64,000 nt of DNA from Gammaproteobacteria bacterium. GTDB lineage: Bacteria > Pseudomonadota > Gammaproteobacteria > JACKNK01. The DNA is taken from positions 204,782-268,781 of the forward strand of contig JACKNK010000006.1 of NCBI GenBank assembly GCA_024234955.1, written 5' to 3'. The position numbers were made by a program, and so were the translations under genes. How positions within the stretch are numbered: the stretch's first letter is position 1; the number at the start of each line of letters is the position of its first letter. Under the pieces are notes generated by a model. The model ran no database searches, was not told where the DNA came from, and saw nothing but the letters and a program-made list of their open reading frames with translations. Below are positions 27,051 through 45,367 of this stretch, in pieces.

Positions 27051-27069
27051 CCCGGGCGTTCCGGTTGCG

Positions 27070-27807
27070 ATGCGCAATCCCCGTATCCATGTTGATCAGC
27101 GTTTGGGCGTCGGGGACGAATTCGCACTTCCGGAGGGGCCGGCCCGGCATGTCGCACAGGTACTGCGCATGCGGGTCGGCGACGCCCTGACCCTGTTCAA
27201 CGGCGACGGCAACGACTACGGCGGCGAACTGCTCGACGTCACCCGCCGCGACGCCCGGGTGCGCATCGATACCTGCAACGTCGTCGAAAAGGAGTCGTCG
27301 CTCCGCATCACCTTGCTGCAAGGCATCTCCAAGGGCGAACGCATGGACTGGGTGATGCAGAAATCCGTGGAACTGGGGGTGCATGCCATCGTCCCGGTGG
27401 TCACCGAACGCACCGTGGTACGCATTGACGACAGTCGTAGCGACAAGAAGCTCGCCCATTGGCAGGGCGTGGTGATTTCGGCCTGCGAGCAATCCGGGCG
27501 TGCGGTGATCCCCGAGGTGCGGGAGCCGATCCGCTTTGCCGAGGCGATCGCGCAATTCAAGGGCGCGGTGCTCGATCCGCTGGCCTCGATATCGCTCACC
27601 GCCGGGCGACCGGAAGCGGCCCAGAGCCCGTTGGCGGCCAGCTTGTTGATCGGTCCGGAAGGCGGGCTCAGCGATGTCGAGATCGACCAAGCGAAACAGG
27701 CGGGCTGGGTCGGCGCCCGACTCGGACCGCGCGTGCTGCGTACCGAGACTGCCGCCCTGGCGGCGCTGGCGGTGATGCAGGCCAGCTGGGGTGATCTGGC
27801 GAACTGA
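27070..27807 (+). CDS. rsmE: 16S rRNA (uracil1498-N3)-methyltransferase RsmE
   Basis: 245 aa. PUA-like N-domain plus SPOUT core (…LIGPEGGLSDVEI…). Confidence 0.85.
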   Translation: MRNPRIHVDQRLGVGDEFALPEGPARHVAQVLRMRVGDALTLFNGDGNDYGGELLDVTRRDARVRIDTCNVVEKESSLRITLLQGISKGERMDWVMQKSVELGVHAIVPVVTERTVVRIDDSRSDKKLAHWQGVVISACEQSGRAVIPEVREPIRFAEAIAQFKGAVLDPLASISLTAGRPEAAQSPLAASLLIGPEGGLSDVEIDQAKQAGWVGARLGPRVLRTETAALAALAVMQASWGDLAN

Positions 27808-27814
27808 CGCTTGC

Positions 27815-28300
27815 TCAGGTCGTATCGCCAATCAGCCGCGATAGCATCGCGTCCACATCCGAGCCCCGGGGCGTTTGGTCCAACGGGGTCCAGGATTGAT
27901 CCGCCTCCAGCCGAAAACTACCGACGAATTCATGGGGCGGTCGGCTTCCCCATTCACGGGGTGACAACATCGACCAGAGCGTGCGGTCATCGTCGCGTCG
28001 ATACAGGTGGTAAACCTTCCCCGGGATACGTTTGAAGGCGCATTCGGCGCGATGCAGTTCCTGGTCCCGGCGCGCACCCTCCAGAATGCGCCGGGCCTCT
28101 TCCTGCAAGGCCTGCATCTGGTCGGCGATGACCCGCAGCTTGGCGTGCGTATGGGTCGCGACCGAGGCATCCGCGCCACTGATCTGGCGGGCGATGTCCA
28201 CCAGATCGGTCGCCGCCCCGAGTCGGCTGACTGGGTAAGGCGCACTGCGGGCATCGCCCTGATGGTTCGGGCCGGAATACTTGCTGGCGTCATCGGCCAT
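27815..28300 (-). CDS. Conserved hypothetical protein (possibly DUF2452-like)
   Basis: 161 aa. Last gene of the minus-strand operon 30809→27815. Confidence 0.45.
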   Translation of the reverse strand: MADDASKYSGPNHQGDARSAPYPVSRLGAATDLVDIARQISGADASVATHTHAKLRVIADQMQALQEEARRILEGARRDQELHRAECAFKRIPGKVYHLYRRDDDRTLWSMLSPREWGSRPPHEFVGSFRLEADQSWTPLDQTPRGSDVDAMLSRLIGDTT

Positions 28301-28309
28301 GTCGTTCGC

Positions 28310-28783
28310 TCACAGGTGTTCGTCGATACCGTGCGCCTTCAGGCCCCAGGCGAACAGCGAACTGACCCGCTTGTTGGCGGTGCGCAGGCGCTCGGCCAGG
28401 GTGTTGAGCAGGTCTTTGAGAACCGGATACCCGACTTCCGGATGGGCATCGAGGTACACGCGCAGGATGTCGCCGGGGATCACGCCCAGCTCGCAGTCGC
28501 TGATCGCGACCACGCTGCCACTGCGCGGTTTCAGGTCGAACAGGCACATTTCGCCAAACACCGTGCCCGGCCCAAGATCGCTGTATCCGGGGCGCAGACT
28601 GCGGTCGTCGTCGAGCGCGACTTCACCGACCACCCGTACCGTCCCGCTCAAGACCACGAACACATCGCACTGGCTGTCGCCTTCGTTGAAAACGTGTTCG
28701 TGCACCGTGCAAAGGCGCCGCTGCCACGCGTCACCTTCGGGAAAGTCGGGGGAGTCGAGCAGATTCTTGAGTGCGTTGGACAT
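28310..28783 (-). CDS. Stand-alone cyclic-nucleotide-binding (CAP-family) domain protein without a DNA-binding domain
   Basis: 157 aa. …GTVFGEMCLFDLKPRSGSVVAISDCEL… is the cNMP-binding beta-roll with the phosphate-binding cassette (GEM…R.A). No HTH. Confidence 0.7.
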   Translation of the reverse strand: MSNALKNLLDSPDFPEGDAWQRRLCTVHEHVFNEGDSQCDVFVVLSGTVRVVGEVALDDDRSLRPGYSDLGPGTVFGEMCLFDLKPRSGSVVAISDCELGVIPGDILRVYLDAHPEVGYPVLKDLLNTLAERLRTANKRVSSLFAWGLKAHGIDEHL

Positions 28784-28788
28784 GAGAT

Positions 28789-29625
28789 CTATCCGGGGTG
28801 ATCGGTGGGTTTGTGACCGGTGGCAACAAAGACGGCGGCGAAGCCCCAGGCTTCGGGATCGTCGCTGATCTGACGGATCACGGCTTCTTCCGCCTGACCG
28901 AGCTGCTTCTGTTCGTCGCTGAGCTGTTCGAGTTTGAAGCCGGTGGTGATGTCGAGAAAGTTGCGCATGCCGAGGTCGGCACTGGTCACGGTATGCACGA
29001 ACACGCCAACCTGATCGAACCCGTTGCGCGCCAGCAGGGTGCCAAGCTTGCGCCCGACATGGCGGTCACCTCCCCGTGCCTGCTGAGCCTGGGCGGCACG
29101 TTGCGTGAACGAGGTGAAGGTTTCCGGTTCCGGGAACAGCGTCAGCCAATCGTCATCGATGTCGAGAATCGCAAGAATGCCGCCCGGCTTTAGTGTGCGC
29201 AGAGCCGCTTCGAAGGCGCGTTCCGGGTGTTCGAGATGCTGAAACAGGAAACGTGCGTAAATGAAATCGAACTGCGCCTCGCCCAGATCGAGTTCATAGA
29301 CATTGGCCTGCTGGAAACGGAGATTCGTCAGCCCGGCGGCGTCCGCCGCCGCCTGCGCTTCCTTGAGCAGATCGGGACTCAGGTCAACACCCGTGACCCG
29401 ACCGTTACCCACCATGCGCGCGATCTCGCAACTGACGATCCCGGGGCCGCAGGCCATGTCCAGGACATCCATGCCTTCCCGCAATCCGGCCCGACTGAGC
29501 AACTGACGTTCCAGCGCGGTGGCAATCGCCGCCTGCTGCTTCAGACGATCGAGCTCCTTCTGGTTCTCATCGAAGCTGCCAAAGGCGTAGGAACCCGCAG
29601 CGGTATGGGTATTGCTGGTGCTCAT
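28789..29625 (-). CDS. Class I SAM-dependent methyltransferase
   Basis: VLDMACGPGIVS is motif I. 278 aa. ATGA overlap with the upstream gene. Confidence 0.75.
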   Translation of the reverse strand: MSTSNTHTAAGSYAFGSFDENQKELDRLKQQAAIATALERQLLSRAGLREGMDVLDMACGPGIVSCEIARMVGNGRVTGVDLSPDLLKEAQAAADAAGLTNLRFQQANVYELDLGEAQFDFIYARFLFQHLEHPERAFEAALRTLKPGGILAILDIDDDWLTLFPEPETFTSFTQRAAQAQQARGGDRHVGRKLGTLLARNGFDQVGVFVHTVTSADLGMRNFLDITTGFKLEQLSDEQKQLGQAEEAVIRQISDDPEAWGFAAVFVATGHKPTDHPG

Positions 29626-30809
29626 TCGTTTTCGGTTTCCTCAAGTTGTTGCAGGGTATCGAGCCAGTTCTGGGTGGTGCCGCGCAGGCGCTCGCAGAGA
29701 ATCACCGACAGATTCAGCAGCACCGGGGCAACGATTTCCGGCATCTTTTTCAAGGCGCGCTTGATGAAGGACTGGGTCAGGATCAGCAGTTCCATATCGG
29801 TATTGGCCACCACCTGGGCGGTGCGCGGCGTCTTGGCGACGAACGCGATCTCGCCGAACACCTGACCAGGACCGACCACCGCCAGGGAATGGCGTTTGCC
29901 ATCCGCATCCCGCCCCCAGACCTCGGCGACGCCATCGAGCACGACGAACATCTCGTTACCGATGTCCCCCGGACGGATGATGATCTCACCCGCCTTGCAG
30001 GGCAGCACCGTACCGGAATCCAGAAAGGCCCGCGCCTGCACTTCGTCCAGGCCTTTGAGCAGGCCGATGCCTTCGCGCGGATCGACATGCAGGCGGTCTT
30101 CCATCAAGGCCCAGAACCCATCGGTATCGACCAGGCGCTTGTTGATATGGACGGCATGCGCCGGGAATTCCGCGATAAACCATGCGGTCCCGGTCGCATC
30201 CGCCGGCAGTTTGCGGGCCTCGCGCCAGAACGGGGAGCGCACCGCCCTCATGTGTTCGATGTCCTCGGCCATGAACACCAGCGGGACGTGGTAGCCGGCA
30301 TCCTTGTCCATGAAGCCATCGGCGTAACGGCGATACCCGAGCTGCTCGTAAAACTCGACCAGGGACGGGGTGCAATTGCAGAAATCGAAACGCACGCCGT
30401 TTTCGCGGGCGAAGCGGAATATGGCCGCGAGCAACGCGGCGAGAACCGTGGACCCGCGCCAGTCCGGCGCCACCATCAGGCGAGAGGTCATGGACAGGGA
30501 TTTCGCGGGAAATTCGGCCCAATGTTCGAGCTGATAAATCCGGTTCCAGTACGCATCGAAGCCGGTCTCACCCGCGAGATTGATGCGCACCGTGGCCACA
30601 ATCTCTTCCCCGGCGGCGGCATAAAGCAGGGTCGCTTCATCGTCCAACGGGTCGTAAAGTCGCTTGCCCGCATGGTCGGCGTAGCTCGGGCGTTTGCCCA
30701 TTTCTTCTACGTAAACCGCATAGCGAAACCGATAAATACGCTCCCGCTCCGCTTCCGTAGCGGCAACCTGAATCTCAGGCCGGACGAGATTATCGATGGA
30801 TTCGTTCAC
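29622..30809 (-). CDS. Autoinducer-synthase-like N-acyl amino acid synthase (GNAT) fused to a C-terminal cNMP-binding domain
   Basis: N-terminal half RIYRFRYAVYVEEMGKRP…FCNCTPSLVEFYEQLGYRRY resembles LuxI/FeeM-type acyltransferases (exosortase-associated N-acyl amino acid synthase family). C-terminal half …PGQVFGEIAFVAKTPRTAQVVANTDMELLIL… is a cNMP-binding domain. 395 aa. Confidence 0.6.
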   Translation of the reverse strand: MNESIDNLVRPEIQVAATEAERERIYRFRYAVYVEEMGKRPSYADHAGKRLYDPLDDEATLLYAAAGEEIVATVRINLAGETGFDAYWNRIYQLEHWAEFPAKSLSMTSRLMVAPDWRGSTVLAALLAAIFRFARENGVRFDFCNCTPSLVEFYEQLGYRRYADGFMDKDAGYHVPLVFMAEDIEHMRAVRSPFWREARKLPADATGTAWFIAEFPAHAVHINKRLVDTDGFWALMEDRLHVDPREGIGLLKGLDEVQARAFLDSGTVLPCKAGEIIIRPGDIGNEMFVVLDGVAEVWGRDADGKRHSLAVVGPGQVFGEIAFVAKTPRTAQVVANTDMELLILTQSFIKRALKKMPEIVAPVLLNLSVILCERLRGTTQNWLDTLQQLEETENE

Positions 30810-30847
30810 AAGGGCTCCGCATCAATGTCGAGAAATACGCACCGGAT

Positions 30848-30864
30848 TGTAATAAACAGTTACT
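30848..30864. promoter_or_regulatory. Imperfect inverted repeat TGTAA-N7-TTACT in the divergent promoter region; candidate regulator operator
   Basis: Lies in an AT-rich 120-bp intergenic region between the two divergent operons. Half-sites are reverse complements apart from the last base. Confidence 0.2.
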
Positions 30865-30929
30865 TTCTTGATCGCTGTCCGCATCGTATTCTTACCCGAC
30901 TCAGAGTTTCTGTTCCAAGTCATTGATAA

Positions 30930-32249
30930 ATGAAACGTCTTCTTTCCCTGACGCTTTTCGTCACCTGTTTGTCAACCACCACCCCAGGTGTGGCCGGCAT
31001 TGTCGAAGACATCCAAAAGCTATTCCAATCGGGAGATGCCGCCGGTGCTTACGCGCTTGGACAGCAACACCTGCTGGCGCTGGAGGGAGATCCGGCCTTC
31101 GACTACGAATACGGTGTGGCCGCCATTGATGCAGGCCATTACAGCCAAGGGGTATTTGCGCTCGAACGTGTGCTGCTGCAGACGCCAAATGATCACCGTA
31201 CCCGCCTTGAGCTCGCACGCGGCTATTTCTTGCTGGAACAGTTTGATCGGGCGCGCAAGGAATTCGAAACCGTGCTGGCATCGGAGCCCCCCCAAAGCGT
31301 GGCGGAAAATATCCAGCGCTTCCTCAACATCATCCGAATCCAGGAAGGCCGATACAAATCCACGGCCAGCCTCACCCTGGATCTTGATCGCGGCTGGGAC
31401 AGCAACGTCAACAGCGCGCCCTTCAGCCCAAACTTCGAGTCCCCCGTGCTTGGCCCAGGCACTCTGGCGGCTGGGTCCACCCAACTCGGTGATTATTACA
31501 CTGAGGCCAATGTCGGAACGTCGCTGACCATCCCGGTTTCACCAGGCCGTTACATCGGTGCGGCTTTCGACATCCATCACCGCAGCAACGATCAGCGGGA
31601 TCTGTTTGATACCGACGCACAGACCCTGACCCTGTCCCTCACCGACAATGTCGACACCCTGCAGACCCGCTTCGCTTTCCGTGCGCAGAACTACGAGCTC
31701 GACCACAGCACCTACCGAACCTTGGGCAGCCTTTCCGTCGACGCGCGTCAAACACTCAGTGCGGACACCCAGATCACCGGGTTCCTCAGTTTGGCGAGCC
31801 AACATTACCCTGGGGGAGATGTTCGCGACTCACACCTGATGAACGCAGGTATCGGCGTCATTCACGCCTTGCCGCTTCCGGGTAAACCAGTCGCCTTTGC
31901 CACCGCGTACATTGGTCAGGAAACGCCCCGCCAGAACAACACCGACGCTGATGTGGTGGCCAATCGAGCGATCAAGGGACTGAGCGGTGGGATCCAATGG
32001 ACGCTTGGACCCTCGACCAGTCTGACAGCTACGCTCGCATGGCAGAACAGCCGCTATGCAGGCGAGAGCCCGATCTTTCTCGCCCGTCGCGAGGACGATT
32101 TTGGCAGTGCCGGCGTCACCCTCAAACACCTGCTTGATGACCGATGGAGTCTCAGTGCGGAATTGAGCACCTCCACCAACGACTCCAATTTCGCGATCAA
32201 CAAATACGACCGTGATGTGGTCAACATGAACTTGCGTTACGAGTACTGA
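30930..32249 (+). CDS. Outer-membrane protein with N-terminal TPR-like domain and C-terminal beta-barrel (DUF560 / Slam-like surface-protein translocon)
   Basis: Signal peptide MKRLLSLTLFVTCLSTTTPGVAG. TPR-like helices. Alternating amphipathic strands. C-terminal …MNLRYEY with an aromatic last residue. Confidence 0.5.
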   Translation: MKRLLSLTLFVTCLSTTTPGVAGIVEDIQKLFQSGDAAGAYALGQQHLLALEGDPAFDYEYGVAAIDAGHYSQGVFALERVLLQTPNDHRTRLELARGYFLLEQFDRARKEFETVLASEPPQSVAENIQRFLNIIRIQEGRYKSTASLTLDLDRGWDSNVNSAPFSPNFESPVLGPGTLAAGSTQLGDYYTEANVGTSLTIPVSPGRYIGAAFDIHHRSNDQRDLFDTDAQTLTLSLTDNVDTLQTRFAFRAQNYELDHSTYRTLGSLSVDARQTLSADTQITGFLSLASQHYPGGDVRDSHLMNAGIGVIHALPLPGKPVAFATAYIGQETPRQNNTDADVVANRAIKGLSGGIQWTLGPSTSLTATLAWQNSRYAGESPIFLARREDDFGSAGVTLKHLLDDRWSLSAELSTSTNDSNFAINKYDRDVVNMNLRYEY

Positions 32250-32260
32250 CGCTCGTCTCA

Positions 32261-34474
32261 ATGTCCCGTCAACGTCTCGTCCGACTCCTGCTCAGCCTTG
32301 CAATCACCGCGCTCTTCGCTATTCACGCGATGGGCGCCCGTAGCCTGCCCTTCATCGAACAACTGGAACGCTGGGGCTACGACCTGCGCCTGATCGCCAC
32401 ACTCAAGGGTGGCATCGACAAACGCATCGTGATTGTCGACGTCGACGAAGCCAGCCTCGCTGAGGTCGGGCACTGGCCCTGGCCACGCGACACCCTGGCG
32501 CAACTACTGGACCAATTATTCGCGCACTACCAGATTTACATTCTCGGCATGGATATGGTTTTCGCCGAGGCTGAAGGCAAATCCGTCCTCTACGAGCTGG
32601 ACCGCCTCGCAACCGGCCCCCTCTCAGGCCAGCCCGGGTTTATCGAGGCCTACCACACCTTGCGCCCAGGACTTGAGCATGATCGCCTGTTCGCGGAAGC
32701 CATCGGTCGGGGGTTTGTCGTCACTGGCTTCTCCGCCTCACAGCGCCCCGGCACACATGGCGCCTTGCCGATCCCCTTGGTCAGCCCGGTGCCACCCGAT
32801 ATTGATGCCCTGCCACTGTTTGAACGCTATGGCGTCACCGGCAACCTTGCCGAGATCCAATCGGCAGCCGTTGGCGGGGGCTTCTTTGACAACCCTGCGT
32901 TTGACCCGGACGGCGTCTATCGCGGTGTGCCGCTGGTCTACAAGCACGCGAATGCCCTATACAGCTCCCTGACACTGTCCATGCTGCGGGCGATGCTCGG
33001 CGACCCGCCGGTTGAGCTGGAATATGGCGATCCCCGAAATTCGGAACTCGATTCAATCCGGATTGGCGAAATCCGCATCCCGGTCAATCAACAGGGAATC
33101 GCCTTGGTCCCCTATCAAGGCCGCACCCCCGCATTCCGCTATGTATCGGCTGCGGATGTGCTCACTGGCCGCACCCCTGAGGAAGTCCTCGACAACGTCG
33201 TAGTGATCCTGGGTACCACCGCTCCCGGCCTTTACGACCAACGCACCACACCAATGCAGTCGAATTATCCCGGGGTAGAGGTGCATGCAAACCTGCTCGC
33301 CGGATTGATGAATGAAATGCAGGCAGACACCGCATTGCACAGCATCCGTCACCGGCCCGGCTGGACAGTTGCTTACGATTTGGTGTTGGTACTCGCTCTT
33401 GGTCTCATCCTCTCATTGACGCTCCCCTGGTGGGGGCCAGCATCCGGCATCTCCCTGGTATTGGCACTCGGAGCCGGTCTGATCGGCGGCAATCTCTACG
33501 CCTGGCAGACGCACAACATGGTATTGCCGTTGGCAGGACAGCTGTTACTTCTGTTGACACTTCTGCTTTTCCATAGCGCCTACGGGTACCTAATCGAAGC
33601 CCGCAACAAACGCCGTATCGGTCGCCTGTTCGGGCAATACGTGCCGCCCGAAATCGTGGGTGAAATGAGCAAGCATCACAGCAGTTTCGGCATTGGCGGT
33701 GAATCGAGGGAAATGACCGTGCTGTTCTCCGATGTGCGCGGCTTCACCACGGTTTCTGAAGGGCTCGCACCGGATCAGCTCACTGCACTGATGAATGCGT
33801 TCCTCACGCCTCTGACCGGCGTCATACATAGCCATCGCGGCACCATCGACAAGTACATGGGTGACGCGATCATGGCCTTCTGGGGTGCCCCTCTGGATAA
33901 CCCCGCACACGCCTCGCTGGCAGTAGAGGCCGCACTAGCGATGCAGAGCCGCGTGCGCGAACTGGACACACAATTCAAGGCTCGAGGCTGGCCGGCGCTG
34001 GCCATCGGCATCGGTCTCAACACCGGTCATATGAACGTGGGCAACATGGGGTCGGAGTTTCGCATGGCATATACCGTGCTTGGCGATGCGGTAAACCTCG
34101 GCTCGCGTCTCGAAGGTCTGACCAAGTTTTATGGCGTCGGCATCATTGTCAGCGCGAGCACCCAAGACGCAGCAACGGGTTTCGTTTATCGCGAACTGGA
34201 TCGGGTCCGGGTCAAAGGCAAACACGAACCGGTGGCGATTTTCGAACCACTGGGTTCGGTTGACAGCATCGCTGAAGAGCGCGCCGCCGAGTTGGATTTG
34301 TGGAACCGCGCATTGACGGCTTACCGAGGCCAGAATTGGGCGAAAGCCCTGGAAACGCTGGATCGACTGGCTGATGACCGCCTGACCGAGATCTACCGCA
34401 TGCGCATCGAACAACTGTCAACGCAAACGCTGCCCGACGACTGGGACGCCGTATTCGAGCATCAGAGCAAATAG
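32261..34474 (+). CDS. CHASE2 sensor-domain class III adenylate/guanylate cyclase
   Basis: Periplasmic CHASE2-like region between an N-terminal TM helix and three further TM helices. Cyclase core FSDVRGFTT…DKYMGDAIMAFWG…YTVLGDAVNLGSRLE. Confidence 0.8.
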   Translation: MSRQRLVRLLLSLAITALFAIHAMGARSLPFIEQLERWGYDLRLIATLKGGIDKRIVIVDVDEASLAEVGHWPWPRDTLAQLLDQLFAHYQIYILGMDMVFAEAEGKSVLYELDRLATGPLSGQPGFIEAYHTLRPGLEHDRLFAEAIGRGFVVTGFSASQRPGTHGALPIPLVSPVPPDIDALPLFERYGVTGNLAEIQSAAVGGGFFDNPAFDPDGVYRGVPLVYKHANALYSSLTLSMLRAMLGDPPVELEYGDPRNSELDSIRIGEIRIPVNQQGIALVPYQGRTPAFRYVSAADVLTGRTPEEVLDNVVVILGTTAPGLYDQRTTPMQSNYPGVEVHANLLAGLMNEMQADTALHSIRHRPGWTVAYDLVLVLALGLILSLTLPWWGPASGISLVLALGAGLIGGNLYAWQTHNMVLPLAGQLLLLLTLLLFHSAYGYLIEARNKRRIGRLFGQYVPPEIVGEMSKHHSSFGIGGESREMTVLFSDVRGFTTVSEGLAPDQLTALMNAFLTPLTGVIHSHRGTIDKYMGDAIMAFWGAPLDNPAHASLAVEAALAMQSRVRELDTQFKARGWPALAIGIGLNTGHMNVGNMGSEFRMAYTVLGDAVNLGSRLEGLTKFYGVGIIVSASTQDAATGFVYRELDRVRVKGKHEPVAIFEPLGSVDSIAEERAAELDLWNRALTAYRGQNWAKALETLDRLADDRLTEIYRMRIEQLSTQTLPDDWDAVFEHQSK

Positions 34475-34476
34475 CC

Positions 34477-37167
34477 ATGAGCCATACATCATCCTTGAAA
34501 CCCCAGCTCATCCCGCCAGCCACTGTGGCCTGGCTGGGGCTGGTCGTGGTCGCCATGTTGCTGCTGGTATCACCGACATGGGCGGCTGAACCGATCGGAA
34601 AACTGATTGTCGCAGCGGGCAAGATTGAGGCCCTTGGCGTGGACGGCAAAGTCCGACGTCTGCGTCGCCAGGCCGAAATCTACAAGGGCGACACCCTGAT
34701 CACCGGCGGAGATGTGTTCGCGCAATTGCGCTTCAAGGATGGGGCATTGATCGCGCTGCGTCCAGACACCGAGTTCACCATCGAGGACTACCGCTTCGAC
34801 GGTGCCGAGGATGGCAGTGAACGCGCCATCTTCAAGCTGATCAAGGGCGGCTTCCGCACCATTACCGGCGCGATCGGCCACAAGAACAAGGAGAACTACC
34901 AGGTCTCCACCCCAGTCGCGACCATCGGCATCCGTGGCACCCACTATGGTGTCCGTCAGGTTACCCCTGAGCTCGCCGCGCAACGGCGGCAAGCTGGGGA
35001 GGACATTCAGCCCGGGTTATATGGCGGCGTCGTTGACGGAGAAATTGCTGTCCGCAACGGCGGTGGCGAAAATACCTTCGGCAATGATCGTTACTTCTAT
35101 GTGGCCAGCCCCGATGCCGCACCAGAGACCCTGATTGCGCCGCCCGGCGTGGTCTTCGATGAGGACGCCTCCAAACAGGCGGACAACCAGGACGACAATG
35201 CGGCGGATGGCGACAATCAGGGACAGGACGACACTCAGCAAGCACAGGGCAATGGGGACGACCAACAGGGCGATGGAGAAGGGACGGAAACCGCGCAGGG
35301 TGGGGCAGAAGGCGATGGCGCCTCTGCGGACCAGCAAGCGGGCGTCGAGGATGGGAATGGCGATACGACAGGTGACGGGGGCGAACCGGTCGGATCAGTC
35401 GCCGGCGATAGCACTAGCTCATCGAGCGATTCCGGCACCAGCTCGCGCACGGGCAATAGCACAGGCACCGGACCGTTAAGCAGCGCACTGGTGGTATCGA
35501 TCAATCCGGACACCAGCACCCTGCCAACGACTCTCAATAACAACGTCGTGCTGAGCACGTCGACCGAGAGCGTATTCACGTCCAACGAAACCGTGACGGT
35601 GAGCCAGGCCACCTCATCCTCGTTCACCCGGGCACCGGTGGGTGCCGGGGTGTCGCTGGCTTTCATTGATCGGCAAACCAGCCGCCTGGAACTGATAAGC
35701 AGTGTGCTTACCGACAACGGAACCGATAACTTTGCGATTTTTTACGACGTTGGAAGCAAGGACAACATTCAGGTCAAACAAGCTCGGACCCAAGGTTCCG
35801 GGGAATCCAATCAGACCCAGACGCATGCCTTCAATTTCGGTACTGCCACACTCGCGGAATTCGGGAAAGACGCTGCAAGCGGTGCCAGCTGGGGGCGTTG
35901 GTCTGGCGACTATGTCGTGACCACCGATGGCGCGAACAACGATCCGGTGACAGATCTTCACTTCGTGTATTCGCCCAGCCAGGCATCTTCCGCGACGATT
36001 TCCGCAGCCTCGAGCCGTGCCGAGCCAATCACTTTGTTTGACAAGATCAGCGACGCCACTACCGCCCCCACGGACCTTAACGGTAACGTCGGCAGTTACG
36101 AGTACTTTCTCGTTGGCATCAACTTCGCCACGCAAAAGCTCGTCGGGTACGAGGTCAAAGCCACTGTCGGCGGGGCAACCTATCAGGTCGAACTGCAGAA
36201 TGATCTGGCGCTTGCCGACGTTCTCAAAGATCAAAGTGCACAACTGACGGGCAAATGCACCGGTTGCGGAACCAGCACCAGCGTCACTTTGACCGGTGAT
36301 GGTTCGGTCATGTTCATCGACGATGCACTGAGTTACATCGGCGCCAGCTATTCACTTCGCGACAACAGCAGCAGCTACGGCATCGCCGGTGCTGCCGTAC
36401 TGCAGAGTGCGTTGACTCGGACCCAAGAGGTTAATGCCCCAAGCGGAGCAACCGCCCTCACCGCGTTTATCAGCGTGGACAGCAATTCCACCAAGAAGCG
36501 GGAAATTCAAGCCACCGTCCAGAATGGCACTACGAATTTGGTCAAGACCGCCACCGTGAACTCCGTCGGCAACGTCGTCACAAACACCATACAAGGCGCA
36601 AACACCAGCACAGAGAGTCGTTTCGAATCGAACCGTGCCTTCCTGACGGATACCGGTGGAAACACCGTCGGTGTCAACTGGGGGCGCTGGCAGGATGGCT
36701 GGAGCACCAAGATTTCAGGCGTCAACTCCGGTTCGGCGGGGCACGCCCATTTCATCTATTCAGACAAAGTCACCAATACCGCGAATTATCCCGCGCTCTC
36801 CTCGGCCTCATTCACATATCTGGGCGGAACATCCCCGACCGACGAGCTGGGACGGACAGGAAGTATCACCTCGGCAACGATGAGCGTGGATTTCCTCTCG
36901 CAATCCATCACTTCCTACAACATAAACGCGACCACTCCGGGAAGAACCTGGGCGCTCAACTCCACAACCACGACAAGCTTCGTCAGCGCCAAGAGCGGCA
37001 ACATGGCTCTCACCGGAACATGTACAGGTTGTAGCACAACGCCGGTAGTGGGTAGCGCGTCCACCGAATTCGTCGGCAACAACGCAAGCCATGCAATAAG
37101 CAGTTTTGGCGGCTCGATCGCCGACAACAGCAATCAGATTGTCGGCACCGCGTTGTTCAAGCGCTGA
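34477..37167 (+). CDS. Large secreted surface protein: N-terminal FecR domain, acidic low-complexity linker, Ser/Thr-rich region and two tandem roughly 260-aa C-terminal repeats
   Basis: Signal peptide. FecR-like GDTLITGGDVFAQLRFKDGALIALRPDTEF…GTHYGV. D/Q/G-rich linker at 35160-35420. Repeats start at SWGRWSGDY (about 35887) and NWGRWQDGW (about 36676). Each repeat ends with a C…TGxCTGC block. The protein ends …IVGTALFKR. Confidence 0.7.
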   Translation: MSHTSSLKPQLIPPATVAWLGLVVVAMLLLVSPTWAAEPIGKLIVAAGKIEALGVDGKVRRLRRQAEIYKGDTLITGGDVFAQLRFKDGALIALRPDTEFTIEDYRFDGAEDGSERAIFKLIKGGFRTITGAIGHKNKENYQVSTPVATIGIRGTHYGVRQVTPELAAQRRQAGEDIQPGLYGGVVDGEIAVRNGGGENTFGNDRYFYVASPDAAPETLIAPPGVVFDEDASKQADNQDDNAADGDNQGQDDTQQAQGNGDDQQGDGEGTETAQGGAEGDGASADQQAGVEDGNGDTTGDGGEPVGSVAGDSTSSSSDSGTSSRTGNSTGTGPLSSALVVSINPDTSTLPTTLNNNVVLSTSTESVFTSNETVTVSQATSSSFTRAPVGAGVSLAFIDRQTSRLELISSVLTDNGTDNFAIFYDVGSKDNIQVKQARTQGSGESNQTQTHAFNFGTATLAEFGKDAASGASWGRWSGDYVVTTDGANNDPVTDLHFVYSPSQASSATISAASSRAEPITLFDKISDATTAPTDLNGNVGSYEYFLVGINFATQKLVGYEVKATVGGATYQVELQNDLALADVLKDQSAQLTGKCTGCGTSTSVTLTGDGSVMFIDDALSYIGASYSLRDNSSSYGIAGAAVLQSALTRTQEVNAPSGATALTAFISVDSNSTKKREIQATVQNGTTNLVKTATVNSVGNVVTNTIQGANTSTESRFESNRAFLTDTGGNTVGVNWGRWQDGWSTKISGVNSGSAGHAHFIYSDKVTNTANYPALSSASFTYLGGTSPTDELGRTGSITSATMSVDFLSQSITSYNINATTPGRTWALNSTTTTSFVSAKSGNMALTGTCTGCSTTPVVGSASTEFVGNNASHAISSFGGSIADNSNQIVGTALFKR

Positions 37168-37521
37168 TTACCAGCTGAACAGCTTCCACATGGTTGGCAC
37201 CATGTCCTGCATGTTGCCCATCCGGCGCTGGTCGAGTCGCCCATCGCCGTCGGTATCGACGATATAGTAGGCGGGACCGATCGATGGGGTCACGCGGACC
37301 ATGTAAACCCGGCCGTTCTGCTTGTATTCCTCAATCCGTGCCGGCCCCTGGGGTGTCTGGATGATGCGCACGTCGGCAGGCGCGATCTGCGACGACTCTT
37401 CCGGGATGTCTGCAGGCATCGGCGGCGGGATTTCCGGCTCCGGAAATTGCGGGACAGGCGATGCTGCGAACACCGTCGCAGTAAACATCATGGCAGGCAG
37501 GGCAAGGCTCAAACGACGCAT
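37168..37521 (-). CDS. DUF2782-like periplasmic protein
   Basis: 117 aa. Signal peptide MRRLSLALPAMMFTATVFA. Convergent with the surface-protein gene with zero gap. Confidence 0.5.
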   Translation of the reverse strand: MRRLSLALPAMMFTATVFAASPVPQFPEPEIPPPMPADIPEESSQIAPADVRIIQTPQGPARIEEYKQNGRVYMVRVTPSIGPAYYIVDTDGDGRLDQRRMGNMQDMVPTMWKLFSW

Positions 37522-37648
37522 GGCGGTTTTCCCGATGTGGCAGGCTAAGTTCCCTTAGCGTCCTCAACCCCGGGCGGTTTGTCCAGCCTCGAACACAAGC
37601 GGGACGCGCAACGGGCATAATGACCGCCTCGAAATTCGCAGGCCCGTC

Positions 37649-40360
37649 ATGTCCGACATCAAGCCCTTCATCCTGATCGACGGCGCGAGCTATCTGTTCC
37701 GCGCCTTCCACGCCCTGCCGCCGCTGACCAATGTGCACGGCGAACCGACCGGTGCGATCTTCGGCGTTGCCAACATGTTGCGGCGCATGCTCGACGAAGA
37801 CCGCCCTGAACACATTGCCTTCGTATTCGACGCCAAGGGACCGACCTTCCGCAACGAGATGTACCCGGACTACAAGGCCAATCGCCCGCCGATGCCGCAG
37901 GAACTGGCCGTACAGATCGAACCCTTGCTGACCCTGGTGCGCGCAATGGGCCTGCCGGTGGTGATGGAGTCGGGCGTCGAAGCGGACGACGTGATCGGCA
38001 CGCTGGCACGCCAAGCCAGCGCCGAAGGTCGCCACACCCTGATCTCGACCGGCGACAAGGACATTGCCCAGTTGGTCGATGAGCACGTCACCCTGATCAA
38101 TACCATGACCAATACGCGCATGGATCGGGACGGCGTGCGCGCCAAGTTCGGGGTGCCGCCGGAGCGCATCGTCGATTACCTCGCGCTGATCGGGGACAGT
38201 GTCGATAACGTGCCGGGCGTTCCCAAGGTCGGCCCGAAGACGGCGGTCAAATGGCTGGATCAATACGACAGCCTGGACGCGATCATGGCCGCTGCGGACG
38301 CGTTTACCGGCAAGATTGGTGAAAACCTGCGCGCCAGCCTCGAATGGCTGCCGATGGCACGCGAACTGGTGACCATCAAATGCGACGTTCCGCTGGATCG
38401 CACACCGGAACAGCTCAATCTTGCGCCCGCCGACACCGATACCCTGAAGACGCTGCTGGCCCGGTTCGAGTTCACCACCTGGCTCGCTCAAATCGAGGCA
38501 GGCAGTGATTCAAGCACCGCCCCGATCGTGGCCGCACCCGTTCCCGATGCCGCGCCCGAATACGACATCGTGCTCAGCGCCGACCAACTCCATCACTGGA
38601 TGGCGCGCCTGGAAGAGGCGGAACTGTTCGCCTTCGACACCGAAACCACCAGCCTGGATTACATGCAGGCGCGCATCGTCGGCTGCTCGTTCGCGGTCGA
38701 AGCGGGCAAGGCCGCGTATGTGCCGCTTGCGCACGATTACCCGGGCGCTCCCGAGCAACTCGATCTGCAAGTCGTGCTCGCCCGTCTCAAGCCGCTGCTT
38801 GAAGACCCCAAGAAGCTCAAAGTCGGACAAAACCTGAAATACGACATGGCGGTACTCGCCAATCACGGTATCGCGCTGGCCGGGATCGCGTTCGACACCA
38901 TGCTGGAGTCGTATGTCGCCGATTCCACCGGCAGTCGTCACGACATGGATTCCCTCGCCGAGAAGTATCTGGGCAAACAGACCATCCATTTTGAGGACAT
39001 CGCCGGCAAAGGTGCCAAGCAGCTGCGTTTCAACGACATAGCGATCGACGATGCCGGGCCATATGCCGCCGAAGACGCCGACATTACCCTGCGCCTGCAT
39101 CAGGCCTTGTGGCCGCGTGTGGCGGCGCAGGAAGGCACCAAATCGGTGTTCGAAAACATCGAGTTGCCGCTGATTCCGGTTTTGTCGCGGATGGAACGCG
39201 GCGGCGTGCTGATCGATGTCGCGCAGCTCAAACGTCAGTCCACCGAGATGGCGAAACGCATCCTGCAACTGGAAAAGCAGGCGCACGAAGCCGCCGGTCA
39301 ACCGTTCAATCTGGGCTCACCGAAGCAGTTGCAGGAAATTCTCTACGGCAAGCTGGGCATCGAGGTCATCAAGAAGACGCCGAAAGGACAACCTTCGACC
39401 GCCGAAGAGGTGCTCGAACAACTCGCCGAGACCCATGCCCTTCCGCGCCTTATCCTCGATTGGCGCGGCCTCTCCAAGCTCAAGTCCACCTATACCGATC
39501 GTCTGCCCGAGCAGCTCAATCCGGACACCGGGCGCGTTCATACCTCCTACCATCAAGCCGTGGCTGCCACCGGGCGGTTGTCCTCGTCGGACCCGAACCT
39601 GCAGAACATTCCGGTGCGCAGCGAGGAAGGGCGACGTATCCGCCAGGCCTTCATCGCCCCGCCAGGCCAGATCGTGATGGCGGCCGACTATTCCCAGATC
39701 GAACTGCGCATCATGGCGCATCTGTCCGGCGATGCCGGGCTGCTGGATGCCTTCGCGCACGGCGCCGACATCCATCGAGCCACGGCGGCAGAGGTGTTCG
39801 GACGTAACCCGGACGATGTTTCCAGCAACGAGCGCCGTGCCGCCAAGGCGATCAATTTCGGCTTGATCTATGGGATGTCTGCGTTCGGCCTGTCACGGCA
39901 GCTCGGTATCGAGCCCAAGGAGGCGCAGAAATACGTGGACCTGTATTTCGAGCGCTACCCCGGGGTAAAGGATTTCATGGAACGCACCCGCAAGCAGGCC
40001 CGTGAACAAGGCTTTGTGGAGACCGTGTTCGGTCGGCGCCTGTACCTGCCTGAGATCAATTCCAGCAATGTGCCCCGTCGTCAGGGTGCGGAGCGCGCCG
40101 CGATCAATGCGCCGATGCAGGGCACTGCCGCCGACATCATCAAGCGAGCGATGATCGCGGTGGATGCCTGGATCGAGAAGAAATCACCGCCCTTACGCAT
40201 GGTCATGCAGGTCCACGACGAACTGGTGTTCGAAGTGGACGCCGGTTTTGCCGACCAGGCCGAGAAGCAGATCGTCAAACTCATGGCCGGGGCCGCCGAA
40301 CTGGCGGTTCCACTGGTCGTTGACGTCGGGCGCGGAATCAACTGGGATGAAGCCCATTAA
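37649..40360 (+). CDS. polA: DNA polymerase I
   Basis: 903 aa with 5'-3' exonuclease, 3'-5' exonuclease and polymerase (…RRAAKAINFGLIYGMSAFGL…QVHDELVFE…) domains. Confidence 0.95.
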   Translation: MSDIKPFILIDGASYLFRAFHALPPLTNVHGEPTGAIFGVANMLRRMLDEDRPEHIAFVFDAKGPTFRNEMYPDYKANRPPMPQELAVQIEPLLTLVRAMGLPVVMESGVEADDVIGTLARQASAEGRHTLISTGDKDIAQLVDEHVTLINTMTNTRMDRDGVRAKFGVPPERIVDYLALIGDSVDNVPGVPKVGPKTAVKWLDQYDSLDAIMAAADAFTGKIGENLRASLEWLPMARELVTIKCDVPLDRTPEQLNLAPADTDTLKTLLARFEFTTWLAQIEAGSDSSTAPIVAAPVPDAAPEYDIVLSADQLHHWMARLEEAELFAFDTETTSLDYMQARIVGCSFAVEAGKAAYVPLAHDYPGAPEQLDLQVVLARLKPLLEDPKKLKVGQNLKYDMAVLANHGIALAGIAFDTMLESYVADSTGSRHDMDSLAEKYLGKQTIHFEDIAGKGAKQLRFNDIAIDDAGPYAAEDADITLRLHQALWPRVAAQEGTKSVFENIELPLIPVLSRMERGGVLIDVAQLKRQSTEMAKRILQLEKQAHEAAGQPFNLGSPKQLQEILYGKLGIEVIKKTPKGQPSTAEEVLEQLAETHALPRLILDWRGLSKLKSTYTDRLPEQLNPDTGRVHTSYHQAVAATGRLSSSDPNLQNIPVRSEEGRRIRQAFIAPPGQIVMAADYSQIELRIMAHLSGDAGLLDAFAHGADIHRATAAEVFGRNPDDVSSNERRAAKAINFGLIYGMSAFGLSRQLGIEPKEAQKYVDLYFERYPGVKDFMERTRKQAREQGFVETVFGRRLYLPEINSSNVPRRQGAERAAINAPMQGTAADIIKRAMIAVDAWIEKKSPPLRMVMQVHDELVFEVDAGFADQAEKQIVKLMAGAAELAVPLVVDVGRGINWDEAH

Positions 40361-40381
40361 CCCACGTCGAGGGAAATCGTA

Positions 40382-40531
40382 ATGGCCGAATGGCTGGTGG
40401 AAAATTTCATCTGGGTCGGACTTGGCATCGTTGTGCTGCTGGTCGGCATCAAGGTCGTGATCGGCGGGATGCTTAAAAAGCTCATGGATGATTCTGCGGC
40501 GGCCAACGCCGACGCAAGCAACCAGGACTGA
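40382..40531 (+). CDS. Small single-TM hypothetical membrane protein
   Basis: 49 aa, MAEWLVENFIWVGLGIVVLLVGIKVVIGGMLKKLMDD… Not in the ORF track because it is under 60 aa. Found by reading the polA-cytochrome gap. Confidence 0.35.
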   Translation: MAEWLVENFIWVGLGIVVLLVGIKVVIGGMLKKLMDDSAAANADASNQD

Positions 40532-40544
40532 TTCCGAGGTATCC

Positions 40545-41489
40545 ATGCGTCGCGATTTGTTCGAACGCGAACCCCGCCGAAGCGCCTGGGGGGGCTTGCT
40601 CCTGATTCTGGTGGGCATCGGCCTCGCGCTTGGCGTCGATTACGGCGTGAAGCAATCCAACGCCGATACCTTCTGCACCTCCTGTCATTCCATGCAATGG
40701 GTGGCGGCGGAAGCCGGACACGGCGGACATGCGCACAATCCCAGCGGCGTCACCGCCAGGTGCGCCGATTGCCATGTCCCCCGCGATCCCGGTCCCTTGC
40801 TCTGGAACAAGCTGATGGCCGCCAGGAGTTTGCTCGCGGAATATCGGGGCGAGCTGGAGACGGAGGCGCAGTTCGAAGCCCATCGTTTCGATCTCGCCGA
40901 AACCGTGTGGCAACGCATGCTCGCCAACGATTCACGCGAGTGCCGCGCCTGTCATGACGCGCAGGCAATGGATACCGTCCGCCAGAATTCGCACGCCGCC
41001 AGCAAACACGAACAGGCGGAACGCGATCATCAGACCTGCGTCGAATGTCACAAGGGGATCGCCCATACGATGCCTGCGGAACCGGTAATCGCCAACACAG
41101 CCAATCCCGCAACGTCGCCAACCGAGCCTCATGGCCCGATCGTGCTGGACGATCTGACGCTGCAACCGATCCAGCCCGACTCGCCCCTTCCGCCGCCGCC
41201 TGTTCCCCCCGCAGCGACCAACCTGGATCGAACTTTTGTGATGGCCTCACAGTGTTTCGGATGTCATGGGGTGGATGGCATTTCTGCCGGGCCAGCGACC
41301 CCAAGCATCGCCGGCCTCCCTCACGACTCTCTGCGGGATTCGATGCGGGATATGCGTAGCGGCAAGCAGCCCAGCACGATCATGGGGCGCTTGTTGACGG
41401 GACTGTCCGACGCCGACATCGATGCGCTGGCCAACTATTTCAGTCGCCTGCCTGATCTCCGGCCAGCACAGATTGCCGATCCGGAATAG
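40545..41489 (+). CDS. NapC/NirT/TorC-family pentahaem cytochrome c (tetrahaem quinol dehydrogenase module plus C-terminal monohaem c domain)
   Basis: N-terminal TM helix. CTSCH, CADCH, CRACH and CVECH, plus C-terminal CFGCH followed by …IDALANYFSRL. Confidence 0.75.
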   Translation: MRRDLFEREPRRSAWGGLLLILVGIGLALGVDYGVKQSNADTFCTSCHSMQWVAAEAGHGGHAHNPSGVTARCADCHVPRDPGPLLWNKLMAARSLLAEYRGELETEAQFEAHRFDLAETVWQRMLANDSRECRACHDAQAMDTVRQNSHAASKHEQAERDHQTCVECHKGIAHTMPAEPVIANTANPATSPTEPHGPIVLDDLTLQPIQPDSPLPPPPVPPAATNLDRTFVMASQCFGCHGVDGISAGPATPSIAGLPHDSLRDSMRDMRSGKQPSTIMGRLLTGLSDADIDALANYFSRLPDLRPAQIADPE

Positions 41490-42581: not shown

Positions 42582-42595
42582 CCAAAGGTTGGCGC

Positions 42596-45363: not shown

Positions 45364-45367
45364 GTCT

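Follow-up and report, generated by a model that had tools for sequence, protein, structure and literature searches.

A candidate cAMP module in a gammaproteobacterium pairs a CHASE2 receptor cyclase with a cyclic-nucleotide-binding FeeM-type acyltransferase

Results

The window, a stretch of 64,000 nucleotides from a contig of an uncultured gammaproteobacterium, carries two divergent operons in the interval between rsmE and polA. The sequence-only reading had described them as sharing a 120-bp promoter region. The seven ORFs are present at the positions given for them and have the domains assigned to them, and the intergenic region (30810..30929, belonging to neither strand) is exactly 120 bp long. 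Within the operons on both strands the genes are separated by gaps of 2-11 bp or overlap. The intergenic region contains the palindrome GTAAC-N5-(G/A)TTAC at 30849-30863, which occurs only once within the window and is kept in two related loci (L161 and L001). A search of these 120 bp for a sigma-70 or CRP consensus was negative. The surroundings show conserved core synteny and are not a defence island.

The first gene of the minus-strand operon (29622..30809) encodes a FeeM-type GNAT fused to a cyclic-nucleotide-binding domain, hereafter FeeM-cNMP. The FeeM/GNAT Pfam match covers residues 25-181 (score 55 bits, cutoff 27), with the GNAT part at nucleotides 30267-30776, and the FeeM/Acetyltransf_5 match together with a FeeM/LuxI-like GNAT fold is what is expected of a FeeM-type synthase. 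The cNMP_binding match covers residues 271-354 (domain at nucleotides 29673-30062) and is followed by a long C-terminal helix. This domain has a beta-roll with a phosphate-binding cassette of the FGE...R[ST]A type, FGEIAFVAKTPRTA, at nucleotides 29817-29858. From its sequence we predict that the protein is a cAMP-gated N-acyl amino acid synthase. The fusion family to which it belongs forms about 460 clusters at 50% identity and has members in marine Synechococcus and Prochlorococcus; we found no paper on this family. A methyltransferase is often adjacent or fused, and in a second class of context the enzyme is paired with a haem-oxygenase-like di-iron enzyme.

In the window the neighbour is a class I SAM-dependent small-molecule methyltransferase (28789..29625, minus strand; Pfam Methyltransf_25, E=4e-24), whose gene overlaps that of FeeM-cNMP by 4 bp and is translationally coupled to it. 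In 15 loci of the genome-contig scan, drawn from several phyla, the gene directly after FeeM-cNMP encodes a methyltransferase, and so it does in further loci; three fusions of the two enzymes were also seen (P0029, P0031 and P0033). No specific methyltransferase subfamily could be assigned. The product may be a lipoamino acid that diffuses as a signal, or else an aminolipid of the membrane. Of the synthesis of an acyl-amino-acid signal that had been proposed for this operon, the acyltransferase domains stand, and the product may be a signal or a membrane lipid.

The last two genes of the operon encode a stand-alone cyclic-nucleotide-binding protein of 157 amino acids without an HTH (28310..28783, minus strand; Pfam cNMP_binding E=8.5e-15, cassette FGEMCLFDLKPRSG) and a DUF2452 protein (27815..28300, minus strand; Pfam DUF2452 E=5.2e-53). 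The former has orthologues in L001 (77% identity) and L159 (58%), is split into two ORFs in L164 and is absent in L161 and L005. The latter is restricted to the three closest genomes, those of the window, L001 and L161; L159, L005, L164 and L165 lack it. Both are lineage-specific, and DUF2452 probably lies outside the conserved core. The conserved unit therefore comprises five genes and not the seven that had been supposed: the Slam-like outer-membrane protein, the CHASE2 cyclase, the FecR protein, FeeM-cNMP and the methyltransferase. The cpdA candidate (22133-22921), which had been put about 6 kb away as the eraser of the module, scores 185 bits (E=1.7e-54) against the NCBIfam cAMP phosphodiesterase model PRK11148, the cutoff of which is 225. 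We consider it unlinked; 5.4 kb with unrelated genes (SbcC-like, rsmE) separate it from the operon end, and L159, the copy with other flanks, lacks it.

The plus-strand operon opens with an outer-membrane protein (30930..32249) that has a signal peptide, periplasmic TPR repeats (approximately residues 55-135) and a C-terminal beta-barrel ending in RYEY, the layout of a Slam protein. The repeats are matched by TPR_19 and TPR_9 at residues 65-132 (TPR_19, E=5.7e-10), and the barrel part by weak barrel-family matches at residues 356-438 and an EpsL C-terminal match. The earlier label of Slam/DUF560-like is valid at the family level, because PF04575 (SlipAM) is matched by 13 of 21 diverse homologues (28-51% identity) and by the L165 homologue, although the window protein itself falls below the threshold, with no PF04575 match at E<=0.01. 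Its gene adjoins that of a predicted cargo, which ends in an 8-strand barrel domain, and in 58 of 61 metagenomic loci the gene directly after the Slam-like one encodes a FecR-domain protein. We predict that it exports the cargo across the outer membrane.

The second gene (32261..34474, plus strand) encodes a CHASE2 receptor cyclase (CHASE2, E=7.9e-51, 173.5 bits, residues 22-383; Guanylate_cyc, E=3.6e-19, 69.5 bits, cutoff 21.9). Its hydrophobic segments place the periplasmic CHASE2 domain (nucleotides 32324-33409) between TM1 (residues 5-28) and a block of three TM segments (residues 366-447), upstream of the class III cyclase domain (residues 483-657, nucleotides 33707-34231), as in other CHASE2 receptors. 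Class III adenylyl cyclases are marked by two metal Asp residues, a Lys and Asp/Thr pair for ATP, and a transition-state Asn and Arg. All six are kept here (metal residues D491 and D535, the adenine-type specificity pair K531 and T605, and N612 and R616) and align with those of P. aeruginosa CyaB (3r5g) and other solved cyclases, so the Asp pair and the Asn and Arg on which the sequence-only reading had staked its proposal are in place. As these residues are intact, we predict an adenylyl cyclase, and the cyclic nucleotide that had been left unspecified can be narrowed, from K531 and T605, to a predicted cAMP.

The third gene (34477..37167, plus strand) encodes a secreted protein of 896 amino acids with a Sec signal peptide, a FecR domain (nucleotides 34588-35160), an acidic/Gly/Ser-rich linker and two C-terminal TbpB-like handle-and-barrel lobes (nucleotides 35596-36396 and 36400-37164). 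Such lobes are the hallmark of Slam/type 11 secretion (T11SS) cargo. The C-terminal lobe matches NHBA, TbpB, HpuA, fHbp and hemophilin, and the protein combines the signal peptide with a TbpB-type barrel at its extreme C terminus, as such cargo does. What had been called a giant FecR-domain surface protein keeps its FecR domain and its size, and we now read it as a predicted Slam/T11SS cargo. A lipobox was looked for and none was found, there being no Cys after the signal peptide; the protein would thus be of the non-lipidated, hemophilin-like type.

At least four of the five core genes are present in six genomes, with FeeM-cNMP 49-87% identical, the order permuted and the flanks different in two. 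The outer-membrane protein, cyclase and FecR genes diverge from FeeM-cNMP not only in the window but also in L161 (87%), L001 (81%), L159/L160 (60%), L005/L004 (56%) and L165 (49%), where the percentages give the identity of the FeeM-cNMP protein. L159/L160 has flanks that differ from those of the window, L005/L004 has the order outer-membrane protein, FecR, cyclase, and L165 lacks the methyltransferase; in L164 (62%) only the cyclase diverges from FeeM-cNMP. The cyclase and FeeM-cNMP are neighbours in the window and in 6 other genomes, all from a single gammaproteobacterial clade. Outside that clade the pair arose independently in an operon from an alphaproteobacterium (L037) and in a gene cluster from Burkholderiales (L041). 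The co-occurrence exceeds chance. The expectation that the neighbourhood is conserved was therefore borne out for the adjacency of writer and reader, which recurs across lineages, but not for the gene order or the set of seven. Four gammaproteobacterial genomes (the window, L161, L164 and L165) have the polA-DUF2782 synteny in common, and part of the conservation is therefore due to vertical inheritance.

About 60 of the 66 full-length FeeM-cNMP loci have no cyclase within 10 kb, and most Slam-FecR pairs stand apart from any cyclase or cNMP reader (Fisher p=0.03, 2/6 versus 0/24, comparing only loci of at least 8 kb). Other readers were seen beside CHASE2 cyclase cassettes, namely a cNMP-patatin with a GNAT on Paracoccus pAMI5 and a tandem-cNMP protein with a GAF-HD protein in L078/L093. 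In L079 a cNMP-rhodanese adjoins a Slam-like gene; this contig is short and shows neither a cyclase nor a FecR gene.

Discussion

The locus is a real module, with a mechanism that we infer throughout; its domain content, catalytic residues, predicted folds and gene linkage were observed. The proposal that sensing leads to a cyclic nucleotide and this to an acyl-amino-acid synthase, all in one module, is the best reading, because the cyclase residues are intact and the adjacency of writer and reader recurs. We lean towards a module of two arms, in which envelope sensing raises cAMP and cAMP gates the synthase. The Slam-like protein would export or display the neighbouring FecR/TbpB-like cargo, and the two together may pass a cue from outside the cell or from the envelope to the CHASE2 domain in the periplasm. 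Once cued in this way, the inner-membrane class III adenylyl cyclase would make cAMP, which would bind the C-terminal domain of the FeeM-type GNAT. This enzyme would make fatty-acyl amino acids only with cAMP bound, and the coupled SAM methyltransferase would methylate the product. The stand-alone cNMP-binding protein could be an optional second cAMP receptor or a buffer. Export of the cargo, the relay from FecR to CHASE2, cAMP binding, allosteric gating and the chemistry of the product are all steps that we infer.

A more detailed version, which we put forward tentatively and regard as somewhat doubtful, is that the T11SS protein presents a TbpB-like receptor of two lobes, the FecR domain of which turns on the cyclase, and that cAMP then gates the synthase-methyltransferase pair directly and post-translationally, and not via CRP, to give a methylated lipoamino acid. 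We found no paper on such a trans-envelope pathway. If it exists, T11SS would have a role in signalling, and the FeeM-cNMP family would be a new class of cAMP effector.

It is also possible, if unlikely, that two independent cassettes lie side by side, the cyclase feeding a global cAMP pool that is read mainly by a CRP/Vfr-type regulator elsewhere and to which FeeM-cNMP also answers, with neither dedicated coupling nor shared regulation. This would fit the occurrence of FeeM-cNMP and the methyltransferase without a cyclase in L003, L163, L006-L010 and picocyanobacteria, the Slam-FecR pairs without a cyclase in most of 80 metagenomic loci, the shared polA-DUF2782 synteny and the lack of a recognisable shared promoter or CRP site. 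However, the adjacency has outlasted permutation of the order, loss of neighbours and a move to other flanks (L159, L005), the pairing arose separately in L037 and L041, and different cNMP readers occupy the same position beside other cyclase cassettes. Less probable still is that the GNAT is not a signal-making N-acyl amino acid synthase but an OlsB-like or other acyltransferase, or that the ligand of its second domain is neither cAMP nor cGMP, as in some CRP/FNR-family sensors, so that the link with the cyclase would be incidental. Acetyltransf_5 is a broad Pfam family, there are weak NCBIfam matches to the OlsB ornithine N-acyltransferase (E=5e-7) and to an exosortase-associated acyltransferase, and the Paracoccus counterpart is a phospholipase, which hints at lipid remodelling; the second class of context, with the di-iron enzyme, would also fit this alternative. 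Against this, FeeM is the top match both within the Pfam GNAT family and by structure, and the cassette residues that contact the cyclic phosphate, FGE...R(T/S)A, are conserved throughout the family. A membrane aminolipid as the product would be compatible with the two-armed module and does not oppose it.

We consider it very improbable that the locus is a Pycsar-like anti-phage system, in which infection would cause the cyclase to make a cyclic nucleotide and the cNMP-domain effectors would then kill or arrest the cell. Pycsar systems likewise encode a class III-type cyclase beside proteins with cNMP-binding domains, and in PADLOC, PycC models match the cyclase domain (best E=1.7e-31) and PycTIR effector models match both cNMP-binding domains. 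These matches are at the domain level and span only the shared cyclase and cNMP-binding domains, and we rejected membership. Whereas Pycsar combines a soluble pyrimidine cyclase with CNB-TIR or CNB-TM effectors, the window has a four-TM CHASE2 receptor with the adenine-type K/T pair, a GNAT and a methyltransferase as effectors, and a core-genome position with outer-membrane secretion partners.

The module as a whole had not been recognised as a described system, but its sensor operon has described counterparts. A gene cluster of CHASE2 cyclase, phosphodiesterase, FecR and TPR proteins is known in Campylobacterota, where a single pathway was proposed (PMC9239204). It brings together the same three types of sensor-arm genes, but it includes a phosphodiesterase and has no cNMP-binding enzyme, and its TPR and FecR proteins were not recognised as Slam-like and as Slam cargo, respectively. 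In S. meliloti, CHASE2 cyclases need the outer-membrane protein NsrA for their activation by a signal (a protein) from outside (PMC7529298, PMC13001267), and NsrA-CyaK is an experimentally studied fused analogue of the sensor operon (PMC7529298). On pSymB, the CHASE2 cyclase gene is directly preceded by an ORF of 1216 aa with FecR, TPR and a C-terminal barrel, which we equate with nsrA by position and size only. These parts of an NsrA-type partner are all present in the window. In the NsrA-CyaK/CyaD1/CyaD2-Clr system they form one polypeptide, whereas here they are split between the Slam-like protein and a separate FecR/TbpB-like cargo, and the readout is the transcription factor Clr there and an adjacent enzyme here. 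We found no paper describing the pairing of such a cyclase sensor with FeeM-cNMP.

Similarly, the known Slam/T11SS systems with TbpB, LbpB, fHbp, HpuA, NHBA or hemophilin as cargo have a TPR and DUF560-family barrel protein that adjoins a cargo with a handle and an 8-strand barrel, and the bilobed arrangement in the window resembles TbpB. The predicted cargo in the window differs in its N-terminal FecR domain, its lack of a lipobox and its linkage to a cyclase, and the outer-membrane protein in lying below the DUF560 threshold; the T11SS surveys that we consulted make no mention of FecR, cyclases or CHASE2. On the enzyme side, none of the FeeM/NasY synthases or LuxI-type AHL synthases has a regulatory cNMP domain, unlike FeeM-cNMP. 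The mycobacterial cAMP-regulated acetyltransferases Rv0998 and MSMEG_5458 have the order CNB-GNAT, the reverse of that in the window, and their GNAT is a protein lysine acetyltransferase that is not FeeM/LuxI-like. We therefore rejected an Rv0998-type Pat identity for FeeM-cNMP, which scores 36.5 bits against NF058543 (cutoff 460), over the cyclic-nucleotide-binding part only.

Organization and conservation of the neighborhood

Seven ORFs in the window (G+C of about 60%) form two divergent operons, and Pfam confirmed each of the domains that the sequence-only reading had assigned to them. The minus-strand operon encodes FeeM-cNMP (29622-30809), a predicted N-acyl amino acid synthase in which a FeeM-type GNAT domain (aa 25-181) is fused to a cyclic-nucleotide-binding (CNB) domain (cNMP_binding, aa 271-354), followed by a class I SAM methyltransferase (28789-29625), a stand-alone cNMP_binding protein of 157 aa with no other domain (28310-28783), and a DUF2452 protein (27815-28300). 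The plus-strand operon encodes a 439-aa outer membrane protein (OMP) with TPRs and a weak beta-barrel signal (30930-32249), a cyclase with CHASE2 and Guanylate_cyc domains (32261-34474), and a FecR-domain protein (34477-37167). Within both operons the genes overlap or are spaced by 2 to 11 bp, and the divergent region that they were said to share measures exactly 120 bp.

The durable link in this neighborhood is the one between the CHASE2 cyclase and FeeM-cNMP, because it is kept in several genomes of one gammaproteobacterial clade and recurs outside it. A genome scan with a FeeM-cNMP alignment gave 75 loci, and gene content was compared by tblastn with the seven window proteins and by look-ups of homologues. 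All seven genes are present in L001 (81% identity in FeeM-cNMP). L161 (87%) has six, without the stand-alone cNMP gene and with the same rsmE...polA flanks as the window, and L159/L160 (60%) also have six, without DUF2452 and with other flanks (SpoT/rpoZ/gmk and MoxR/DUF58). Five genes remain in L005/L004 (56%), where the order is OMP-FecR-cyclase and not OMP-cyclase-FecR. In L165 (49%), the OMP, FecR, and cyclase genes diverge from FeeM-cNMP and the methyltransferase is missing; in L164 (62%), the cyclase alone is divergent, and the methyltransferase and a split cNMP gene are present. No cyclase was found near FeeM-cNMP in several equally related genomes (L003, L163, L166, and L006-L010). The gammaproteobacterial conservation is partly vertical, as the polA-DUF2782 synteny is common to the window, L161, L164, and L165. 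The pairing arose again outside this clade. In the alphaproteobacterial locus L037, a CHASE2 cyclase, a heme-oxygenase-like protein, FeeM-cNMP, and an FkbM methyltransferase are encoded head to tail, and in L041, from a Burkholderiales MAG, a CHASE2 cyclase follows FeeM-cNMP and a methyltransferase at a distance of 4.5 kb in the same orientation. The seven-gene neighborhood whose conservation was to be checked thus shrinks to a five-gene core that recurs, with permuted order in L005/L004; the stand-alone cNMP protein and DUF2452 are variable accessories.

The proposed sensor arm: cyclase, outer membrane protein, and FecR protein

The sequence-only reading took the cyclase for the writer of the signal, and its catalytic residues agree with this. 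Based on phmmer alignments to solved cyclases and position counting, both metal-binding Asp residues (D491 and D535) and the transition-state residues N612 and R616 are present, and the specificity pair, which had been left to alignment, is of the adenylyl type (K531 and T605). The same Lys/Thr pair occurs in Pseudomonas aeruginosa CyaB (3r5g); the 2w01 chain, presumably the Synechocystis guanylyl cyclase Cya2, has Glu at the Lys position. Because the metal-binding Asp residues, the Lys/Thr pair, and the Asn and Arg are kept as in CyaB, we predict an active homodimeric adenylyl cyclase. Its topology runs from TM1 through a periplasmic CHASE2 domain and three TM segments to a cytosolic catalytic domain.

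PF04575 (DUF560/SlipAM, the Slam barrel of type 11 secretion [T11SS]) was detected in 13 of 21 diverse homologues of the OMP, the window protein itself falling below the threshold. A metagenome scan anchored on this Slam-like family gave 80 loci, in which all ORFs of at least 100 aa were searched and tblastn was added. Of the 61 loci whose downstream DNA is long enough, 58 have a FecR-domain gene no more than 1.2 kb after the OMP gene and in the same orientation. Two of the three exceptions still have a FecR-type protein (in L080 tblastn detects the C-terminal lobe only, and the L081 gene is upstream), so the two proteins are an obligate pair. The window FecR protein starts with a Sec signal peptide that lacks a lipobox; the FecR domain, a linker of low complexity rich in acidic residues, and two copies of a module of about 255 aa that are 28% identical to each other follow in this order. 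The C-terminal lobe matched no Pfam family at an E value of ≤1. We conclude that it is the predicted cargo of the adjoining Slam-like OMP, with a TbpB-like bilobed architecture. The T11SS papers that we read contain no mention of FecR, cyclases, or CHASE2.

Sensor arms of this kind have been described before, and the one in the window is a split form. In Campylobacterota, a cluster of CHASE2 cyclase, phosphodiesterase, FecR, and TPR genes has been proposed to form a single pathway (PMC9239204), and in Sinorhizobium meliloti CHASE2 cyclases need the outer membrane protein NsrA if they are to sense a plant or ribosomal uL2 protein signal (PMC7529298, PMC13001267). Directly upstream of a CHASE2 cyclase on pSymB we found a 1,216-aa ORF with FecR at aa 85 to 179 and TPRs at aa 436 to 550 (Pfam); the barrel of this protein spans aa 600 to 1200 (PMC7529298). 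The record is unannotated, nsrA and cyaK were derived from ORFs and Pfam, and the ORF was equated with nsrA by position and size only. In this ORF the FecR, TPR, and barrel parts are fused, whereas in the window they are divided over two genes. The reading of these components as a T11SS OMP and its cargo is a new structural one.

A cyclase lies beside the Slam-FecR pair in a minority of loci only (L078, L080, L083, L084, L087, and L093, and Paracoccus aminophilus pAMI5). An HMM of the CNB domain, built from the family and run on all ORFs of the 80 loci, matched in five (L078, L093, L082, L085, and L079), three of them confirmed by Pfam. In L078 and L093, a tandem-cNMP protein and a GAF-HD protein are encoded directly upstream of the Slam-FecR-cyclase cassette. 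L082 and L085 share this architecture, and their contigs stop short of the cyclase position. In L079, a cNMP-rhodanese gene and the OMP gene diverge; the contig is 6.3 kb long, and no FecR or cyclase gene is visible on it. The plasmid pAMI5 (L076, 718-9124) has the layout of the window, with a TPR-FecR-CHASE2 cyclase set divergent from a small GNAT and a cNMP reader, but the lipid-active reader differs, being a patatin-like phospholipase. Among the Slam-FecR loci of 8 kb or more, readers occurred in 2 of 6 with a cyclase and in none of 24 without one (Fisher test, p = 0.03), an association too weak to stand alone given the small numbers and several incomplete contigs. At least four different cNMP-domain proteins occupy the slot beside these cassettes, three of them adjoining a CHASE2 cyclase, as would be expected if the writer had dedicated readers that can be exchanged.

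Other arrangements were also seen. The cassette of L078 (7421-16191) and L093 comprises tandem-cNMP, GAF-HD_5, Slam-like OMP, FecR cargo, CHASE2 cyclase, and a convergent response regulator-GGDEF gene, suggesting cross-talk from cAMP to c-di-GMP; L080, L083, L082, and L085 are incomplete versions of it. In L084 (15322-18237) and L087, the CHASE2 class III cyclase adjoins a class I (CyaA-type, PF01295) adenylyl cyclase, convergent on the Slam-FecR pair, so that each locus has two unrelated predicted cAMP synthases. On a Ruegeria sp. AD91A plasmid (L077, 2314-9043), a FecR protein and a CHASE2 cyclase diverge from a TonB-ExbB-ExbD cluster, and a Slam-like gene is absent, a possible sign that TonB-type energy coupling serves some FecR-CHASE2 pairs.

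The proposed effector arm: FeeM-cNMP and methyltransferase

The effector arm is a large uncharacterized family. FeeM-cNMP has 462 clusters at 50% identity (E value of ≤1e-30), and both domains are covered in most of the best 150 of the 462. One annotated protein, from a Gammaproteobacteria MAG, is identical to the window FeeM-cNMP. Matches come from Gamma-, Alpha-, and Betaproteobacteria, Acidobacteriota, Verrucomicrobiota, and Planctomycetota, as well as Melioribacteraceae (which we take to be Ignavibacteriota), Sporomusa, Synechococcus, and Prochlorococcus. In 15 genome-scan loci, which represent several phyla, an orthologue of the methyltransferase is encoded downstream of FeeM-cNMP; further loci were found by look-up. 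Precomputed Pfam domains show natural fusions of the two enzymes in P0029, P0031, and P0033 (603 to 671 aa), and four homologues of 600 to 700 aa (P0289, P0324, P0358, and P0387) are, judged by length only, probably the same fusion. By this Rosetta-stone argument, both enzymes probably act on one product, since they adjoin across phyla and occur fused. The methyltransferase could not be assigned to a subfamily beyond generic class I small-molecule enzymes. Methyltransferase genes also adjoin N-acyl amino acid synthase genes in N-acyl tyrosine clusters (PMC12479983). No publication that we found links FeeM or N-acyl amino acid synthases with cyclic-nucleotide domains.

FeeM-cNMP also occurs in another context, in which a heme-oxygenase-like di-iron protein of about 220 aa (PF14518) is encoded directly upstream and replaces the UbiE-like methyltransferase (L037 [9288-9986], L038, L045, L047, L049, L053, L054, L055, L057, L058, L061, and L071); its gene often overlaps the FeeM-cNMP start codon. 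In L041 (25-8690), two TPR-CHAT (caspase-like) proteins of about 1,000 aa flank FeeM-cNMP and the methyltransferase and precede the CHASE2 cyclase.

Proposed mechanism and alternative explanations

From the observed domains, residues, and linkage and the predicted folds we infer the following course of events. The Slam-like OMP would export or display the FecR/TbpB-like cargo, and the OMP-cargo pair would pass an external cue to the CHASE2 domain. The cyclase would then make cAMP, binding of which to the CNB domain would switch N-acyl amino acid formation by the FeeM-type synthase, and the methyltransferase would modify the product. This may be a diffusible signal or a membrane aminolipid; a weak similarity to OlsB and the phospholipase counterpart in Paracoccus point rather to lipid remodeling.

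The rival explanation of mere juxtaposition, with FeeM-cNMP reading the global cAMP pool, is supported by the numerous copies of either cassette that stand alone. In favor of selection are the rearranged gene orders, the relocated locus, and the separate origins outside the clade. Another rival is a GNAT-CNB protein with other chemistry or another ligand. The fold of the GNAT half was resolved by structure prediction only, as phmmer against the PDB gave no usable match and the profile search was swamped by CNB domains. In the CNB half, 50 homologues show conservation of at least 90% in the phosphate-binding cassette (F318-G319-E320...R329-T330-A331), and the predicted structure has a terminal long helix resembling the CRP dimerization helix; the cassette of the stand-alone protein reads FGE...RSG. 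A Pycsar-like defense system was rejected because the PADLOC matches are confined to shared domains.

Bacterial cAMP is known to act mostly via transcription factors of the CRP type; enzymes seldom serve as its direct effectors, mycobacterial Rv0998 being the textbook case. Rv0998 is a functional precedent for a cAMP-gated GNAT, but its domain order and GNAT type differ from those of FeeM-cNMP. If the module works as proposed, the large, phylum-spanning family of cNMP-domain FeeM-type synthases would constitute a new class of effectors, tying a second messenger to the production of a lipoamino acid signal or lipid. The inputs of CHASE2, a common sensor domain, are poorly understood. The recurrent Slam-like OMP with its FecR/TbpB-like cargo would provide a concrete input route to it, joining the S. 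meliloti NsrA genetics to the T11SS field. Prediction of T11SS cargo has hitherto centered on nutrient capture proteins and adhesins, and a cargo that has an N-terminal FecR domain and is linked to a cyclase would add signaling to this range. The view that this is not a described system holds for the uncharacterized effector arm and not for the sensor arm, a split form of NsrA/CyaK and the Campylobacterota cluster; the whole module is a variation within cAMP signaling and not a new category.

Flanking genes and regulatory sequences

The cpdA-like gene that had been counted as the eraser of the module (22133-22921) is not part of it. It encodes a metallophosphoesterase scoring 185 bits against the 225-bit cutoff of the NCBIfam cAMP phosphodiesterase model, and unrelated genes (SbcC-like and rsmE) stand between it and the minus-strand operon. 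It overlaps a transglutaminase-like/TPR_9 gene by 4 bp (22133-23763); at least the latter is syntenic in L161, and the pair looks like a housekeeping unit. Downstream of the module (37168-37521 and 37649-45489), we found the position of a DUF2782-type small gene, polA, a NapC/NirT tetraheme cytochrome, a TauE/SafE exporter, aroK, and a PilQ-type secretin, a context that is core genome. There were no signs of mobile elements around the module in the window.

Scans for sigma-70 promoters and terminators (27600-37700) gave counts equal to those of shuffled sequences, with none within the 120-bp region, and Rfam detected no RNA family in 27000-38000. The intergenic region has no CRP site (TGTGA-N6-TCACA, up to 2 mismatches), and such sites are fewer than expected by chance window-wide. 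Inside the region lies a palindrome, GTAAC-N5-(G/A)TTAC (30849-30863), of which the 64-kb window has no other copy when up to 1 mismatch is allowed. The palindrome is absent from the more distant L159, L164, L165, and L005, conserved in L161, and perfect in L001, and a local regulator may use it as its operator.
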